From a virus (lineage: Duplodnaviria > Caudoviricetes), in the IMG/VR virus record IMGVR_UViG_3300028805_000048: DNA of 64,000 nucleotides, one strand, 5' to 3'. The notes under the pieces are model-generated. The model was not told the DNA's origin and did no database searches. It was given only the letters and a program-made list of their open reading frames with translations. This document shows positions 1 through 4,214 of this stretch, one piece after another (the stretch's first letter is position 1; each line of letters opens with the position of its first letter). The translations under genes were made by a program, and so were the position numbers.

Positions 1-104
1 GACAATTAGTGATGAACTAGTTTGTCAAAAAGAGCTGCTTTTGTGGGAACAATACACTGAGATTACATCATACGGTCCATGTTCCCTTCTCTTTTTTTTT
101 TATT

Positions 105-178
105 TAGGGTGTCTTCTAAGGGTCGGAAAGTGGAATTTGACTCCATTAATCGAGGTTCGAATCCTTGCACCCTAGCCA
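105..178 (+). tRNA. tRNA-Gln(UUG)
   Basis: Acceptor tagggtg/cacccta, anticodon arm gtgga-atTTGac-tccat, GTTCGAAT T-loop, encoded CCA. Confidence 0.9.
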
Positions 179-377
179 CAGTTCAAAAATTGTCAGAAAT
201 GGAGATTTTTTTGCTATTTTACAAGCATGTAAGTTAATTCAAAGATAAATATATTTTGAAGGTTAGTTTTACAATAACTTAGCTATGTGAAAAATTAAAT
301 TAGTAATAAAATAAGTTGAATTTATGAATTATCTATACTTTAATAATTGGAACTAGATTATTACTAGGAGTAATATA

Positions 378-1169
378 ATGACTGTAAACAAATATAAAGA
401 TATCATTATCAATAAATATACAGAATATGATGAAGATACTCGTTTGGTTAGTGATAGAGGACATAATTTAGAATATTTAACCACTATGCGTTATATTCAA
501 AAATTCCTAAAACCAGGTGCTAAAATATTAGAAATCGGTGCAGCAACTGGACGTTATTCTATTACTTTGGCTGAGATGGGGTATGATGTTACTGCTGTTG
601 ACCTTACTCCTAAAAATATTGAAGTAATGAAATCTAAAAGTAAAAGATTAAAGAATTTTAATTGTATGATTGGCGATGCTTTGGATTTGAGCATGTTTGA
701 TGATAAAACTTTTGATATGGTTTTAAATTTAGGACCTATGTATCATTTATTTAACAAAAAAGATAAAAACAAAGCAGTAAGTGAAACTTTACGTGTTGCT
801 AAAAGAAAAGCGATATGTATGTTTGCGTATCTTCCTTGTGCTTCATTAATGACTAGTTATGGTTTACGACACCAAGCAGTTTCTCATTTAGACGAGTTAA
901 TGGATAATGTCGGACGTTTTAAGGATACACCTGAAGAAATATTTAATACTTTTCATATTGAAGATTTTAAGAAGCTATTTAATAAAACAAATACAAAATA
1001 TATTACTAATGTAGCTACTGATGGTATAGCATATGCTATGAAAGAATGGGTAGAACAATTATCTAAAAAAGATTATGATGCTTTTATAAAATGGCATTTT
1101 TTAACTTGTGAGCGTATTGATCAACAAGGATATAGTGCGCATTTGTTATATATTTGTAAGAAAAAGTAG
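378..1169 (+). CDS. Class I SAM-dependent methyltransferase
   Basis: ILEIGAATG motif I, VDL, GDALDL, FDMVL..GPMYHL; SD aggag upstream. Confidence 0.85.
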   Translation: MTVNKYKDIIINKYTEYDEDTRLVSDRGHNLEYLTTMRYIQKFLKPGAKILEIGAATGRYSITLAEMGYDVTAVDLTPKNIEVMKSKSKRLKNFNCMIGDALDLSMFDDKTFDMVLNLGPMYHLFNKKDKNKAVSETLRVAKRKAICMFAYLPCASLMTSYGLRHQAVSHLDELMDNVGRFKDTPEEIFNTFHIEDFKKLFNKTNTKYITNVATDGIAYAMKEWVEQLSKKDYDAFIKWHFLTCERIDQQGYSAHLLYICKKK

Positions 1170-1343
1170 TTTATTTATCTTGAGAATTATAAGCTCACTT
1201 TAGCTAATTTATGTAAAGAATTGTCCCAGTAATCCTATGACATCTTAGTAATGTTATGATCTGTTCTATGCAATAACATAGAGTTTTAAAAATTCCTAGG
1301 TTCTATTTTTAAAATGGACAAATGATATTTTTAATTATTTTAT

Positions 1344-1447
1344 GGGAAGCGTATATAGCTATGGAGACTATGGCAAGGACTAGTACCCTTGTCCTCGTAA
1401 GTACTAGTTAAAGAGACGGATGGTTCGATTCCACAAACTTCCCACCA
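1344..1447 (+). tRNA. Atypical type II tRNA-like RNA with 8-nt anticodon loop
   Basis: gggaag/cttccc acceptor + ACCA, GGTTCGATTCC T-arm, stem gcaagg/ccttgt closing an 8-nt loop actagtac, long variable arm. Confidence 0.6.
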
Positions 1448-1457
1448 TATTTACTAA

Positions 1458-1549
1458 GGAACAGTGGCTGAGTGGTTTAAAGCAGCGATCTACTAAATCG
1501 TCGAGGGCAGAAATGTCTTCCAATCGTTCGAATCGATTCTGTTCCGCCA
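1458..1549 (+). tRNA. tRNA-Ser(ACU)
   Basis: Acceptor ggaacag/ctgttcc, G73+CCA, long variable arm, anticodon arm gcgat-ctACTaa-atcgt. Confidence 0.85.
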
Positions 1550-1580
1550 ATTTTAAAAATGTTGTTTCCTATAAAAAAAT

Positions 1581-1612
1581 GACTTTACAAAATAAAAAAT
1601 TTGTTTTATATA
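1581..1612 (+). promoter_or_regulatory. Sigma70-type promoter for leader peptide and tRNA array
   Basis: gacTTTACA-17 nt-TATATA, a variant of the recurrent GGCTTTAC promoter. Confidence 0.6.
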
Positions 1613-1645
1613 TAAAAATATAAAATGAGAAAGGTTCTAATAAAT

Positions 1646-1723
1646 ATGATGAATAGATTAGTTAAAAAATGTTGGCACATGTTTGGATTCGCAGGTAAAA
1701 CTGACGGAGGTGTTAACTATTAA
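1646..1723 (+). CDS. Attenuator leader peptide, 25 aa (MMNRLVKKCWHMFGFAGKTDGGVNY); not in ORF track
   Basis: SD gaaagg at ~1629; the 3' end carries CGGAGGT, complementary to the terminator 5' arm; residues 7-18 match the downstream tRNA set. Confidence 0.8.
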   Translation: MMNRLVKKCWHMFGFAGKTDGGVNY

Positions 1724-1752
1724 CTAAAATCTTTTCTAAAGTTAATTTAAAT

Positions 1753-1790
1753 AAAAACCTCCGAAAAAGTAAAAAGTTTCGGAGGTTTTT
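1753..1790 (+). terminator. Attenuator terminator upstream of tRNA array
   Basis: aaaaacctccgaaa...tttcggaggttttt hairpin plus U tract; competing antiterminator 1705-1711/1757-1763 and 1719-1725/1740-1746. Confidence 0.85.
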
Positions 1791-1819
1791 CTTATTTTTA
1801 TGTATATATTATGAAGATT

Positions 1820-1898
1820 GGGGAATGGGACTGCTTGGGGTGGTCATCTCGTTTGCACCGAGAAATTCAGGTGAGTTCAAAACTCACATTCTCCACCA
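1820..1898 (+). tRNA. tRNA-Ala(UGC)
   Basis: G3:U70 pair, tctcg-ttTGCac-cgaga, CCA. Confidence 0.9.
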
Positions 1899-1900
1899 AT

Positions 1901-1976
1901 GGATATCTGGTATAGCTGGTGCGTACGTCTGTCTGAAGAACAGAAGGACCGAGTTCGATTCTTGGGGTATCCACCA
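1901..1976 (+). tRNA. tRNA-Phe(GAA)
   Basis: tctgt-ctGAAga-acaga, cloverleaf, CCA. Confidence 0.9.
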
Positions 1977-1980
1977 TTAC

Positions 1981-2056
1981 GGAGCTATAGTATAAATGGT
2001 TATTACTTGCGACTTTTAATCGTAAAATCAAGATTCGAGTTCTTGTGGCTCCACCA
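1981..2056 (+). tRNA. tRNA-Lys(UUU)
   Basis: tgcga-ctTTTaa-tcgta, CCA. Confidence 0.9.
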
Positions 2057-2059
2057 AAT

Positions 2060-2135
2060 GGCAACATATTTCAATCGGTAGAAAGCATCTCTCATAAGGA
2101 TGTAGTTACTTGTTCAAGTCAAGTTGTTGCCACCA
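2060..2135 (+). tRNA. tRNA(CAU), elongator Met (Ile2 not excluded)
   Basis: catct-ctCATaa-ggatg, paired 1-72, CCA. Confidence 0.85.
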
Positions 2136-2138
2136 TGT

Positions 2139-2212
2139 GGACCGTTGACAGAGCGTTTATGTGTTCGGCTGCAACCCGAATTAGATGGGTTAGACTCCCT
2201 TACGGTTCTCCA
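2139..2212 (+). tRNA. tRNA-Cys(GCA)
   Basis: ttcgg-ctGCAac-ccgaa, U73 discriminator, CCA. Confidence 0.9.
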
Positions 2213-2214
2213 AT

Positions 2215-2289
2215 GCGATTCTCGTATAATGGTTATTATGTTAGTCTTCCAAACTAAAGATATGAGTTCAATTCTCATGAATCGCTCCA
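2215..2289 (+). tRNA. tRNA-Gly(UCC)
   Basis: gcgattc/gaatcgc acceptor, ttagt-ctTCCaa-actaa, U73+CCA. Confidence 0.9.
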
Positions 2290-2291
2290 AA

Positions 2292-2365
2292 GGAGGTTTA
2301 GTTCAAAGGTAGAACACTGGTCTCCAAAACCAAAAATGATTGTTCGAGTCAGTCAACCTCTGCCA
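2292..2365 (+). tRNA. tRNA-Trp(CCA)
   Basis: tggt-ctCCAaa-acca, G73+CCA. Confidence 0.9.
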
Positions 2366-2415
2366 TTTCAAAATTTTACGCATAGAAGTATATATCAGTG
2401 ACTTGGTTTATACTT

Positions 2416-2492
2416 GTGTGCGTAGCATAAATGGATAATGCACTGGTTTGTGGTACCAGATCATGTGGGATCATACCCCACCGTACACCCCA
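2416..2492 (+). tRNA. tRNA-His(GUG)
   Basis: ctggt-ttGTGgt-accag, C73+CCA; T-loop non-canonical; position -1 is T. Confidence 0.85.
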
Positions 2493-2628
2493 ATAAAATT
2501 TTTATTTATGGCTTTACTTTTACAAAACATTATTTTATTTTAAATTTGTTTGTTAAATATATACAAACGTTGTATTAACCGTGGAATTTTTCAGAAACCA
2601 CATTAAATAAACTGAAGAGGATAATGAA

Positions 2629-2850
2629 ATGTCAAAAAGTCAAATGATAGATAGACGTATAAATAAAATAGATGATAATTTTGTATATGTTGAATATACT
2701 TATTTATATGTCGATGAAAAAGAAAATATAGAAAAACAAAAAGGTGATTTTAAAGGTTTTCATCCAATTGGTAAAACTATCCATAAAAATATTAAGATGC
2801 ATGGAAAATATACTGGTTGGGTATGGGGACAAATGTATCAAAAAAATTAG
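2629..2850 (+). CDS. Hypothetical protein
   Basis: ORF with SD gagga; GGCTTTAC promoter at 2510. Confidence 0.6.
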   Translation: MSKSQMIDRRINKIDDNFVYVEYTYLYVDEKENIEKQKGDFKGFHPIGKTIHKNIKMHGKYTGWVWGQMYQKN

Positions 2851-2875
2851 AAATATTTTTAAATAAAATAGTTCT

Positions 2876-3175
2876 AACATCAATGTCGTTTGAGCCGCGA
2901 CTTTAAAATAATGACGGATGAAAAATTCCAAGCTCAATTGGAGTGCTGTATCCATAGTCAAAAAATTAACAGCTATAGTAGTAAACTACTGGTGTTTGAA
3001 TATTTAACCTATAGAAATAATATTCAGTTCTGCAACTTAAGATTTATCTTATCTATAAAGTTGTTCGGTTTAAGAGTAATCGATTGAATACGTATGGAGT
3101 ATAGTGCACGAAACATACGATACGATAAAGACTTAATCAAACTCTTCGTTATCTATTGACAGATTGTTGTTGACT
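2876..3175 (+). ncRNA. Candidate ~300 nt structured ncRNA
   Basis: Follows AGTTCTA at 2870; imperfect closing stem, several hairpins, loop-loop complement TTGAGC/GCTCAA; no convincing ORF. Confidence 0.55.
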
Positions 3176-3199
3176 ACGTTAATGTCAACTTTTATTTAT

Positions 3200-3275
3200 A
3201 GCAGGGTAGAGCAGTAGTAGCTTACTTGGCTCATAACCAAGAGGTCGTGGTGTGCAATTCCCACCCCTGCAACCA
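3200..3275 (+). tRNA. Initiator tRNA-fMet(CAU)
   Basis: Unpaired 1:72 (A/A), gcaggg/ccctgc, cttgg-ctCATaa-ccaag, ACCA. Confidence 0.85.
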
Positions 3276-3278
3276 ATC

Positions 3279-3579
3279 AAATTTGGTTTTACTCGAATAA
3301 TTAGTTGATGGCTAATAAGAGTACATATATAAATACTGAAAAGTTTTATGTGTGGTTGGATGTAACAAGAAGCATAAAGTTGAATTAGCATAGGTTGGCC
3401 AACCTATAGTGACGTAAGAAATGGACAAATCGTGTTGAACAATACTGACATCTGTATCCATTTGGAGGTAAACAATCCTCTCATCTATTAAACAAAAGAT
3501 TAGCTACCTTTTGTAGATGTGACTGAATAATGTGCTTGTTAATAACTTGGAGGTAGTCAGGAGTCCTTCAACCAAATTT
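3279..3579 (+). ncRNA. Candidate ~300 nt structured ncRNA directly after tRNA-fMet
   Basis: Perfect 10-bp closing stem aaatttggtt/aaccaaattt, nested helices, 18-nt palindrome at 3390-3407. Confidence 0.6.
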
Positions 3580-3603
3580 TTAATTAAGTAAAAGGAATAG
3601 AAT

Positions 3604-3777
3604 ATGAAAAAGAAAAAACGAATAAAAACAGGTGAAGAAAGAATAATTCTATTTAATCTTTATCACAATAAAATATATCGACACAAGGTAATAAAAAATA
3701 AAAAAAGAGAACAAAAGAAGTTCAATATAAATAAAGAGATTGGTTATTATTCAAGTTGTTATCTATTAACTGTTTAA
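3604..3777 (+). CDS. Small basic protein, ArfA-like ribosome rescue factor candidate (57 aa; not in ORF track)
   Basis: SD aaagga; LYHNKIYRHKVIKNKK resembles the ArfA core LHDPLFRQRVEKNKK; long hairpin 3739-3789 spans the stop codon. Confidence 0.5.
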   Translation: MKKKKRIKTGEERIILFNLYHNKIYRHKVIKNKKREQKKFNINKEIGYYSSCYLLTV

Positions 3778-3839
3778 ATAATAACCAATTTTCTTTTATT
3801 AAATTTGTTTTTTTTTGATTATTATATGGTGTTAAAATA

Positions 3840-4214
3840 ATGATTTATAAACATTTTCTAGATTTCACAAAAAATTCTCCTTTTGATAAATTATCAGGTG
3901 ATCAAAAAAGAGCTGTAGAAACACAAGCTAACATAGATTTAGAAGCACATAAACTGTCAAGATATTATAAAAAAGCTATAAAAGATGAAGAAATAGAGAA
4001 TGAATTGTTTAAAGCTTTATGCAAACAATATGCAAAAAAATCTGAAAATGAGTTAAAGAAAATGGTAATATTAGATTCAAAAGCTTTATACTATTATCCA
4101 TTAACAAAAGATAGAATTGAATATTACGAAAAATTAGCAAAAGAAAAAGCTGATGCCATGGATAGAAATATATATGCTCAAACAAAATTACATTTTAAAA
4201 ACTTCGATAGATAA
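3840..4214 (+). CDS. Hypothetical protein
   Basis: 124-aa ORF. Confidence 0.6.
   Translation: MIYKHFLDFTKNSPFDKLSGDQKRAVETQANIDLEAHKLSRYYKKAIKDEEIENELFKALCKQYAKKSENELKKMVILDSKALYYYPLTKDRIEYYEKLAKEKADAMDRNIYAQTKLHFKNFDR

Follow-up and report, generated by a model that had tools for sequence, protein, structure and literature searches.

A candidate leader-peptide attenuator in front of an eight-gene tRNA array in an uncultured jumbo phage

Described attenuators and the phage locus

Leader-peptide attenuators are known that respond to more than one amino acid: the leaders of ilvGMEDA and ilvBN carry Ile, Leu and Val codons, and the thr leader carries Thr and Ile codons. In all of the leader-peptide attenuators known to us, the regulated genes encode enzymes of amino-acid biosynthesis or an aminoacyl-tRNA synthetase; in the phage locus presented here the genes behind the putative attenuator are tRNA genes. 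The purpose of tRNA genes in phages has been debated for fifty years, the proposals being codon compensation, replacement of degraded host tRNAs and escape from anticodon nucleases, and to our knowledge the regulation of these genes is largely unknown.

The locus lies within a stretch of 64,000 nucleotides (“the window”) and has in common with the ilv and thr leaders a promoter, a short ORF whose codons specify several different amino acids, an antiterminator where the ORF ends and an intrinsic terminator ahead of the regulated genes. In those leaders, stalling at any one of the regulatory codons lets transcription read through, and the same would hold here. It differs from them in being phage-borne, in its apparent control of tRNA genes rather than biosynthetic enzymes, and in that the codon list corresponds to the operon's own products. 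The lists are also longer, with eight amino acids in leaders like that of the window (A-type), nine to 12 and four in two further types (B and C), mostly present once or twice each, whereas the ilv and thr leaders have runs of two or three. With trpL of Escherichia coli the locus shares the logic of segment 2:3 versus segment 3:4 pairing and a stop codon beside segment 2, but it has another target and no tandem identical codons, and a possible 1:2 hairpin is predicted in only three of the A-type copies (the window, L005 and L006). The attenuator of E. coli pheST, with its pheM leader, also governs a component of the translation apparatus by the decoding of its own amino acid; there, however, a single amino acid and a protein-coding target (Phe-tRNA synthetase) are involved. 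Given that the products here are the tRNAs themselves, the phage feedback loop would close directly on the decoded molecule. T-box elements of Firmicutes likewise attenuate transcription of translation-related genes in response to the state of a tRNA, but a T-box binds one uncharged tRNA without translation, whereas the phage leaders show conservation of the coding type. In full-text literature searches we came upon no account of tRNA genes under the control of a leader peptide. The Rfam leader families gave no match at E up to 1 in positions 1-4000 of the window or at E up to 0.5 in contigs L015, L008, L012 and L010, and there was no Rfam match to the T-box in any of these sequences.

Anatomy and relatives of the locus

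The window is part of a 157-kb record (genome G000) of an uncultured jumbo phage of the sheep or cattle gut. The record encodes a major head protein, an NAD-dependent ligase and an HNH endonuclease and is entered in IMG/VR as a virus; its capsid is at most 37% identical to that of any cultured phage. No nucleotide match to positions 1560-1830 was found by blastn among 50,697 phage records, the related-locus search gave no relatives of the methyltransferase neighbouring the leader locus, and the pattern of the A-type core is absent from 185,579 prokaryote genomes, which hence give no clue to a prophage or a host. Homologues of the leader were drawn from IMG/VR and JGI contigs. In one sheep-gut metatranscriptome run, contigs identical to the phage cover positions 1300-1624 and 2522-2700, with the leader, the terminator and most of the array uncovered; as assembled contigs cannot show ends, they are uninformative on the leader either way.

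The features of the locus, and of the B- and C-type leaders, are given in Table 1. The motif of the promoter-like site precedes all seven A-type leaders and is found before other units of the genome too; a promoter scan did not list the site because it demands T at position 6 of the -10 hexamer. The first-pass annotation had placed a promoter at 1581, and while a promoter-like site is indeed present, its hexamers are at the positions tabulated and not at 1581. The other elements that it had reported, namely the 25-codon ORF, the strong intrinsic terminator with arms at 1753-1790, and eight tRNA genes, were recovered at the same coordinates, the tRNAs in the same order and with the same anticodons (ARAGORN, eight of eight; Rfam tRNA model, seven of eight). 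The terminator hairpin (-15.9 kcal/mol) is part of the minimum free energy (MFE) fold of 1620-1800 (z = -4.1); it was missed by a simple terminator scan, as the loop limit of the scan is 8 nt and the loop has 10. The gene that the Rfam model did not confirm, tRNA-Ala, is unusual in its D arm, yet it does carry a G3:U70 pair. The suggestion that the leader senses “every tRNA” is true for the array behind the terminator at 1753-1799, but not for the genome, which has at least 10 further tRNA genes upstream of the A-type array.

Table 1. Coordinates of the features of the A-type locus and of the related leaders (window positions unless another sequence is named)
Feature	Position	Strand	Remarks
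Promoter-like site	1574-1602	+	-35 TTTACA 1574-1579, 17-nt spacer, -10 TATATA 1597-1602; A-rich tract before
5' UTR	1629-1645	+	purine-rich SD-like GAAAGG 1629-1634 overlapping conserved GTTCTA 1634-1639
Leader ORF	1646-1723	+	25 codons + TAA; stop codon 1721-1723
Putative sensor core, codons 7-18	1664-1699	+	Lys, Cys, Trp, His, Met, Phe, Gly, Ala only, all eight
Predicted antiterminator hairpin	1704-1766	+	5' strand 1705-1725 spanning the stop; 3' strand 1740-1763
Possible anti-antiterminator (segment 1:2)	1651-1735	+	leader-internal hairpin, untranslated RNA; MFE of 1620-1800 and truncated transcript
Intrinsic terminator	1753-1799	+	14-bp stem 1753-1766 / 1777-1790, 10-nt loop, T-rich tract to 1799
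tRNA array, eight genes, putatively regulated	1820-2492	+	ARAGORN
tRNA Ala(tgc)	1820-1898	+	ARAGORN
tRNA Phe(gaa)	1901-1976	+	ARAGORN, Rfam tRNA model
tRNA Lys(ttt)	1981-2056	+	ARAGORN, Rfam tRNA model
tRNA Met(cat)	2060-2135	+	ARAGORN, Rfam tRNA model
tRNA Cys(gca)	2139-2212	+	ARAGORN, Rfam tRNA model
tRNA Gly(tcc)	2215-2289	+	ARAGORN, Rfam tRNA model
tRNA Trp(cca)	2292-2365	+	ARAGORN, Rfam tRNA model
tRNA His(gtg)	2416-2492	+	ARAGORN, Rfam tRNA model
B-type leader	G000 92448-92510		before other tRNA arrays of the same genome, just upstream of the window; covered by L015:1400-1700
B-type leader	L134:2923-2976		
B-type leader	L135:8416-8484	-	
B-type leader	L008:11903-11983	-	
B-type leader	L012:9708-9770	-	
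C-type leader	L080:6074-6133		more distant phage

The SD-like element stands 11 nt from the start codon, which is a long spacing, and is absent in the G000 B-type leader and in L080. The overlapping GTTCTA ends 6 nt before a double ATG, and the columns of both motifs are invariant in the A-type alignment. GTTCTA with a start codon 6-7 nt on is common to the A-, B- and C-type leaders; as a general translation-start motif of the phage it was rejected, since none of its 19 occurrences before an ATG begins a long ORF. A scan with the 5' UTR motif gave some 118 matches, mostly random, which after filtering came down to the known loci and L080, and a tightened motif added nothing real to these.

The A-type leader ORF is kept in six other distinct contigs, making seven loci in all (the window, L005, L006, L007, L008, L009 and L013). 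Across codons 6-18 of these loci all variation is synonymous and at the third base, and it occurs at Lys7, His11, Gly14 and Ala16 only; the tRNA genes diverge strongly among the same loci, for example Ala and Phe between L006 and the window. The terminator stem shows a compensatory change from C-G to T-A in L007 and L013. The array of L007 lacks Ala at its head, and an Ala gene is found 650 nt past His. Several of these agreements count as single evolutionary events, because the homologues are few and closely related.

Leader composition and array content

Leader codons 7-18 had been described as specifying exactly the eight amino acids of the array and no others. This proved correct, all eight being covered within this 12-codon run; the flanks of the ORF additionally hold Asn, Arg, Leu, Val, Thr, Asp and Tyr. 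Among the 980 short ORFs of the 157-kb record (15-40 codons, six frames), the leader ORF alone contains an uninterrupted run with all eight amino acids, and the runner-up covers five; random peptides of the same composition reached such a run once in 2,000,000 trials. The match between leader and array is real and far beyond chance.

The match is one of amino acids. Under strict wobble, 141 of 173 leader codons can be read by array anticodons, as compared with 134 expected from synonymous usage, and examples of poor fits are the pairs GCC/Ala(tgc), GGC/Gly(tcc) (L007) and ATT/Ile(tat) (G000). At Gly14, five of six loci do have a codon that follows the anticodon of their tRNA-Gly, though these are non-independent events. 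The view that the leader codons are tuned to the array anticodons in general was therefore dropped, their fit being no better than the codon usage of the phage predicts; the earlier statement that the codons are read by these anticodons stands at the amino-acid level and not at that of codon choice.

It had also been proposed that leader composition might track array content in related loci, and across the A, B and C types it does so, imperfectly. The B-type leaders, from the same phages as the A-type leaders, list the amino acids of the remaining tRNA arrays. In G000 a 13-residue run covers all nine (Ser, Thr, Asn, Asp, Glu, Ile, Pro, Tyr and Gln); Leu, for which this leader also has a codon, was left out of the set, the tRNA-like element at 93690-93780 being no more than a possible Leu tRNA. 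The cover of the downstream array is 11 of 12 in G001 and 12 of 13 in both L008 and L012. The score for G002 was 5 of 10, on a set that did not include Tyr; Val was absent and Asp uncovered: this leader has no Asp codon, and it has a Val codon though no Val tRNA was found. Arg codons are present in the B-type leaders of G002, L008 and L012, all of which have Arg tRNAs, and absent from that of G000, for which no Arg tRNA was found. The lack of Arg in the G001 leader, by contrast, counts against the tracking. The C-type leader of L080 contains a 10-residue run made up solely of Tyr, Gln, Ser and Pro, and the tRNAs that follow are exactly Ser, Pro, Tyr and Gln (Tyr from an anticodon loop read by eye). 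When leaders and arrays were exchanged in a swap matrix the three types separated cleanly, the B-type leaders being roughly interchangeable on their overlapping sets.

Given this correspondence, we asked what a translation-dependent switch would report. We consider it unlikely that it gauges general translation capacity or amino-acid charging instead of the abundance of these particular tRNAs; on this explanation, tRNA transcription would rise whenever ribosomes slowed down or transcription and translation became uncoupled, as in attenuation of the pyrBI type. Leader attenuation of the trp and his kind senses charged tRNA, not tRNA itself, codon choice is untuned to the array anticodons beyond codon usage, and the flanks of the leaders include codons for amino acids of other arrays, where a stall would free the antiterminator as well. 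In a general sensor, however, there would be no call for three leader types with cores that divide up the amino acids in exactly the same way as the arrays, nor for the retention of rare Cys, Trp, His and Met codons while synonymous sites drift.

Alternative folds and the proposed switch

The first-pass annotation had noted that the end of the leader is complementary to the 5' side of the terminator (1705-1711 with 1757-1763 and 1719-1725 with 1740-1746), and both stretches of complementarity are present. The 3' strand of the predicted antiterminator (-14.2 kcal/mol, z = -4.3) is the 5' arm of the terminator, so that the two hairpins are alternatives. Counterparts of -12 to -22 kcal/mol are predicted in all 13 leader copies, and all 13 have a terminator. 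In the window the duplex of the stop-codon region with the terminator 5' arm has -13.3 kcal/mol, as against -3.8 +/- 1.9 for shuffles, none of 500 of which was as good. More generally, the 45 nt round the stop pair with the 5' arm of their own terminator in 12 of the 13 copies (-11 to -16 kcal/mol, compared with about -4 to -6 for shuffles), and a near-copy of the own terminator 3' arm is found at the stop codon in the same proportion of copies, across five unrelated terminator sequences. These stop-codon regions did not pair with arms from other terminator families. The pairings were tested sequence by sequence and not by column covariation, as indels between the stop and the terminator make the spacer alignment unreliable. 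The A-type leader of L008 has a four-codon extension, and its antiterminator 5' segment lies 25 nt upstream of the stop.

Nascent-transcript folding with the ribosome footprint masked is consistent with such an alternation. With a ribosome on the core, the antiterminator holds the terminator 5' arm with a probability of 0.6-0.7 in the window (0.3-1.0 over all copies, lowest in L005); with a ribosome near or at the stop, the arm is held at 0.3-0.4 in the window and 0.2-0.7 across copies. In these folds the antiterminator would already be masked by a ribosome stalled at Gly17 or Lys18; all eight amino acids are present within the first ten codons of the core. For the window, L005, L006, the G000 B-type leader and L080 the folds predict a 1:2 hairpin, and with no ribosome on the RNA their arm is engaged at only 0.1-0.5. 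No such hairpin is predicted for L007, L008, L009 and L013 or for the B-type leaders of G001, G002, L008 and L012, whose arm is engaged at 0.7-0.94 under these conditions. Being absent from the predictions for four of seven A-type copies, the 1:2 element is uncertain.

We therefore propose, at a probability of roughly 0.78, that the locus is a ribosome-mediated leader-peptide transcription attenuator of the trp/ilv type gating an eight-gene tRNA operon. The earlier idea of a trp/his-type attenuator that lists its own tRNAs gains support from the synonymous-only variation of the core, the match of B- and C-type leaders to their arrays and the own-arm pairing in 12 of 13 copies. Translation of the ORF, stalling, read-through and the physiological trigger are inferred. 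A host-type RNA polymerase would start at the promoter-like site (1574-1602) and transcribe the leader, and a ribosome would translate the 25-codon ORF. Were decoding fast, the ribosome at the stop would cover 1705-1725, the terminator (1753-1790) would form and the RNA would end before the tRNAs. Were a matching charged tRNA scarce, a slow core codon would hold the ribosome upstream, the antiterminator would form in place of the terminator and the array would be transcribed. The outcome would be demand-driven feedback on tRNA supply with eight inputs, and the leader at G000 92448-92510, of the same build, would do likewise for the other tRNA arrays of the genome.

A quite improbable explanation is that the short ORFs are ordinary micropeptide genes with a promoter and terminator of their own, the tRNAs being transcribed from separate promoters and no regulatory link existing. 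The amino acids of the core are conserved, which is what one would expect of a functional peptide, and B-type loci have a good, consensus-like promoter site between the terminator and the tRNAs, so that whatever an attenuator contributes there can only come on top of basal transcription. At A-type loci the terminator is followed by a conserved AT-rich element that resembles a -10 hexamer and could act as a weak promoter; the gap from the terminator to tRNA-Ala is only some 20-30 nt, however, and the promoter scan of the window listed no promoter-like site in it. Micropeptide genes would also leave unexplained why three unrelated peptide types each cover the set of their own array and why a near-copy of each terminator's 3' arm lies near the stop, and the B-type peptides vary freely, apart from the positions at which RNA pairing or the content of the array would set limits.

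Hardly credible is an untranslated RNA element that binds tRNAs directly through codon-like triplets, as a T-box with several specifiers might. The core can be read as a string of triplets complementary to the array anticodons, and the SD is weak or missing in some copies, but neither the T-box nor any other Rfam model matches, the synonymous third-position changes alter the anticodon-pairing triplet while sparing the amino acid, and every copy retains a start codon, an uninterrupted reading frame and, at the antiterminator, a stop. That an AT-rich spacer, of a kind in which short ORFs are common, happens to hold one before a terminator is refuted by the rarity of the eight-amino-acid run in the ORF survey and in random peptides, by its conservation in the other contigs, and by the same property in the independent B and C types with stop regions that pair with their own terminator arm.

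If the locus is a leader-peptide attenuator, the phage gauges the decoding of exactly the codons of its array and supplies tRNAs on demand, tRNA genes join amino-acid and synthetase genes as targets of classical attenuation, and the question becomes which shortage opens the switch. It would also be a natural multi-input sensor of tRNA availability, and possibly a reporter for tRNA-targeting defence systems. Together the A- and B-type leaders of the phage cover 17 of the 20 amino acids. It is possible, but doubtful, that the attenuator is a counter-defence switch, in which the loss of any one tRNA species, whether to a host anticodon nuclease or because the phage itself shuts off host tRNAs, stalls the ribosome on the matching leader codon and turns on the replacement array, and that attenuators with such rosters are a widespread and so far unrecognised means of regulating tRNA genes in large phages; the anticodon nuclease as the trigger is speculation on our part. 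Were this true, damage to the decoding capacity of the host could induce almost all of the viral tRNAs.

A possibly comparable arrangement, judged by ORF composition and terminator position, occurs in the Caulobacter phage phiCbK (JX100813), which is unrelated in sequence, GC-rich and has an alphaproteobacterial host. Between 100 and 150 kb its genome has scattered tRNAs only. Three tRNA blocks of the genome are directly preceded by annotated rho-independent terminators. About 25 nt before one of these terminators (L137 4466-4503) a short ORF stops, one part of which is enriched in Gln, Phe, Val and Ile; the tRNAs behind this terminator are Phe, Val, Ile, Ile, Val, Gln and Gln.

Composition of leaders and arrays

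Transcription of each tRNA array is probably coupled, through a predicted ribosome-mediated attenuator, to the decoding of codons for its own amino acids; judging from sequence, we place the probability of this reading at roughly 0.78. Its core, the leader-peptide attenuator ahead of tRNA genes proposed in the first-pass annotation, is supported by covariation and by the predicted pairing of leaders with their own terminators.

Promoter-like site, leader ORF, terminator and tRNA genes were all found on re-reading where that annotation had placed them, and codons 7-18 of this "A" leader (the core) encode all eight array amino acids and no others. Among 980 ORFs of 15-40 codons, taken from six frames of the whole record, the A leader is the only one with an uninterrupted run covering all eight; the runner-up covers five, and full cover arose once per two million random peptides matched in composition. 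An SD-like element lies 11 nt from the start of the A leader. The D arm of the tRNA-Ala(tgc) gene is enlarged and atypical, and the Rfam tRNA model did not detect this gene at E up to 1; the G3:U70 identity pair is retained, and a canonical Ala gene occupies the equivalent place in three related loci (L006, L009, L013).

Coordinates of the cassettes and neighbouring features (G000, full record; L015, its locus upstream of the window; other L numbers, loci from related contigs; no prefix, window)
Feature	Position	Detail
A promoter-like site	-35 1574-1579; -10 1597-1602	
A leader ORF	1646-1723	25 codons
A terminator stem	1753-1766/1777-1790	14 bp, T tract to 1799; -15.9 kcal/mol
tRNA genes Ala, Phe, Lys, Met, Cys, Gly, Trp, His	1820-2492	eight genes, seven confirmed by Rfam
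tRNA-Ala(tgc)	1820-1898	
B leader	G000 92448-92510	about 1.3 kb before window start
B leader cassette	G000 92448-92600	same as L015 1449-1600
Methyltransferase gene	378-1169	inside tRNA region
tRNA-like element	1344-1448	about 105 nt
tRNA-Ser(ACT)	1458-1549	outside both attenuated arrays
GTTCTA, then 7-codon ORF	2871-2906	about 300 nt upstream of CAT tRNA
CAT-anticodon tRNA	3200-3272	Rfam only, 46.6 bits; A1-A72 mismatch, initiator-like
manA RNA motif match	3391-3574	weak, 16.4 bits, below gathering score
Stretch clearly similar to 3391-3574	L080 4960-5150	adjoins tRNA genes
Conserved stretch	G000 92765-92998	about 230 nt; between tRNA-Ser(tga) and next tRNA
Conserved tRNA-like element	G000 93690-93780	80 nt, just before window; also in L008
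Insert between Cys and Gly	L013 2009-2794	780 nt
HNH-type endonuclease ORF	L080 6630-7135	interrupts tRNA array
Insertion in tRNA array	L008 10088-10882	

Other arrays are preceded by a second leader type, B, which shares the 5' UTR motif and double ATG of A. The core of the G000 B leader is a run of 13 residues made up of Ser, Thr, Asn, Asp, Glu, Ile, Pro, Tyr and Gln. The tRNA genes lying between the B and A leaders serve exactly these nine amino acids, and this leader is likewise unique among the 980 short ORFs. B leaders elsewhere cover 11/12 of their own set in the related phage G001, where Arg is missing, 12/13 in both L008 and L012, and 5/10 in a second related phage, G002, as scored with Tyr excluded from the set; a Tyr tRNA was identified there by eye after scoring, and adding it lengthens the in-set run. 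The G002 leader lacks Asp, and contains Val though no Val tRNA was found. The third type, C, comes from a more distant phage (L080), whose leader has a run of ten residues drawn solely from Tyr, Gln, Ser and Pro; beyond it come a terminator and tRNA genes for precisely these four amino acids (Ser, Pro, Tyr, Gln; Tyr assigned by visual inspection of its anticodon loop). The SD-like element is missing from L080 and from the G000 B leader.

Scoring every leader against every array gave a clean separation of types A, B and C: the A leader scores 8/8 on its own set versus 2/9 on the G000 B set, the G000 B leader scores 2/8 on the A set, and B leaders score about equally on each other's overlapping sets. 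Covariation of leader composition with array content, named beforehand as the decisive comparison, thus came out in favour of the attenuator, with the exceptions noted.

A search for relatives of the A leader, using a degenerate pattern built on its peptide core, gave three IMG/VR and seven JGI metagenome contigs, and with the window these represent seven distinct versions; the homologues, small in number, are related to one another. All versions keep the promoter, the GTTCTA-bearing 5' UTR, both ATGs, the core and positions 1705-1711, codons 6-18 differ solely by third-base synonymous changes (at Lys7, His11, Gly14 and Ala16), and flanking codons and spacer vary freely. The tRNA genes themselves diverge strongly between loci and retain amino-acid identity and order, except in L007, which has no Ala at the array head. 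Such a pattern would be expected of a translated sequence in which amino-acid, and hence tRNA, identity is important.

The first-pass annotation had also matched leader codons to array anticodons. Amino-acid identity proved specific, but the fit at codon level was not above expectation: under strict wobble, 141/173 codons are read, where synonymous usage in the phage predicts 134, and the count rises to 163 if U34 is allowed to read entire four-codon boxes. The specific signal of the leaders is amino-acid identity.

The predicted switch

An antiterminator hairpin is predicted in 13/13 leader copies at -12 to -22 kcal/mol, comparable with the terminator hairpins (-11 to -16 kcal/mol) or more stable; its 5' strand begins no earlier than 25 nt ahead of the stop codon and no later than 5 nt past it. 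The complementarity already remarked between the 3' end of the A leader and the terminator 5' arm, scored over the sequence around the stop codon, goes far beyond shuffled sequences (-13.3 versus -3.8 +/- 1.9 kcal/mol; 0/500 as good), and in the G000 B leader a 12-bp match to the 5' arm of that cassette's terminator begins at the stop codon. The terminators belong to five unrelated sequence families, and in 12/13 copies the sequence around the stop codon can pair with the arm of its own terminator and not with those of other families; this predicted pairing is covariation at the level of the whole helix. A compensatory change was seen in the terminators of L007 and L013.

The nascent transcript, ending at the terminator loop, was folded while a segment the size of a ribosome was kept single-stranded. 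The probability that the antiterminator holds the terminator 5' arm, an equilibrium value with an assumed footprint and qualitative only, was 0.6-0.7 in the window with the ribosome on core codons (0.3-1.0 across the 13 copies, lowest in L005) and 0.3-0.4 with it on the last codons or stop (0.2-0.7). The drop in the window sets in at codon 17, so that the productive zone would be codons 7-16, a stretch in which all eight amino acids already occur. Some copies, the window among them, have a predicted 1:2 hairpin like that of trp; others do not.

A conserved, AT-rich stretch resembling a -10 element, with no -35, lies downstream of the A terminator, and the promoter scan listed no promoter between terminator and array. 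B-type loci carry a consensus-like promoter after the terminator, seen as a promoter-like site in the G000 cassette, so that an attenuator there can only add to a basal level.

Known systems and the possible trigger

The phage leaders share their logic with trpL and with the multivalent ilv and thr leader-peptide attenuators, and the pheST leader is the nearest case within the translation apparatus. Three features set them apart from these: the regulated genes encode tRNAs, the leader lists many amino acids and its list matches what the operon produces, and the location is a phage. Rfam leader and T-box models gave no match to the cassettes, and a full-text literature search found no description of such a system. 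In the Caulobacter phage phiCbK, terminators are annotated directly before three tRNA blocks, and those same amino acids are abundant in part of the short ORF ahead of the Phe-Val-Ile-Ile-Val-Gln-Gln block, offering a cultured system open to experiment.

As to what the leaders respond to, demand-driven homeostasis of tRNA supply is a more economical reading than a trigger by anticodon nucleases, which is speculation.

Phage source and neighbouring RNA elements

The 157-kb IMG/VR record, estimated to be 66% complete and with a G+C content of about 27%, encodes a major head protein, an NAD-dependent ligase and HNH endonucleases; its source is an uncultured jumbo phage, the closest cultured capsid showing only 32-37% identity. 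In the single RNA library with the phage, sheep-gut metatranscriptome contigs are identical to the window at 1300-1624 and 2522-2700, that is, in the flanks of the cassette only, which places the phage, or a strain almost identical to it, in that sample.

In phages of this group, 20-30 tRNA genes are spread over several arrays. Insertions break the arrays of L013, L080 and L008 and leave the leaders unchanged, which suggests remodelling by homing elements. A tRNA methyltransferase family is among the weak PHROG matches of the methyltransferase gene. A tRNA-Ser with an ACT anticodon (A34) is unusual in bacteria and phages; the one found here would decode AGT, which occurs among the codons of the G000 B leader. 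The adjacent tRNA-like element, uncalled by ARAGORN and Rfam, has a good acceptor stem, T loop and encoded CCA, with an apparently 8-nt anticodon loop and a long extra arm. Upstream of the window, the conserved stretch of about 230 nt is apparently structured, gave no match in an Rfam search and has equivalents in L012 and L008, and the 80-nt tRNA-like element has a GGGGC/GCCCC acceptor, an encoded CCA, no recognisable anticodon loop and the spacing of an array member.
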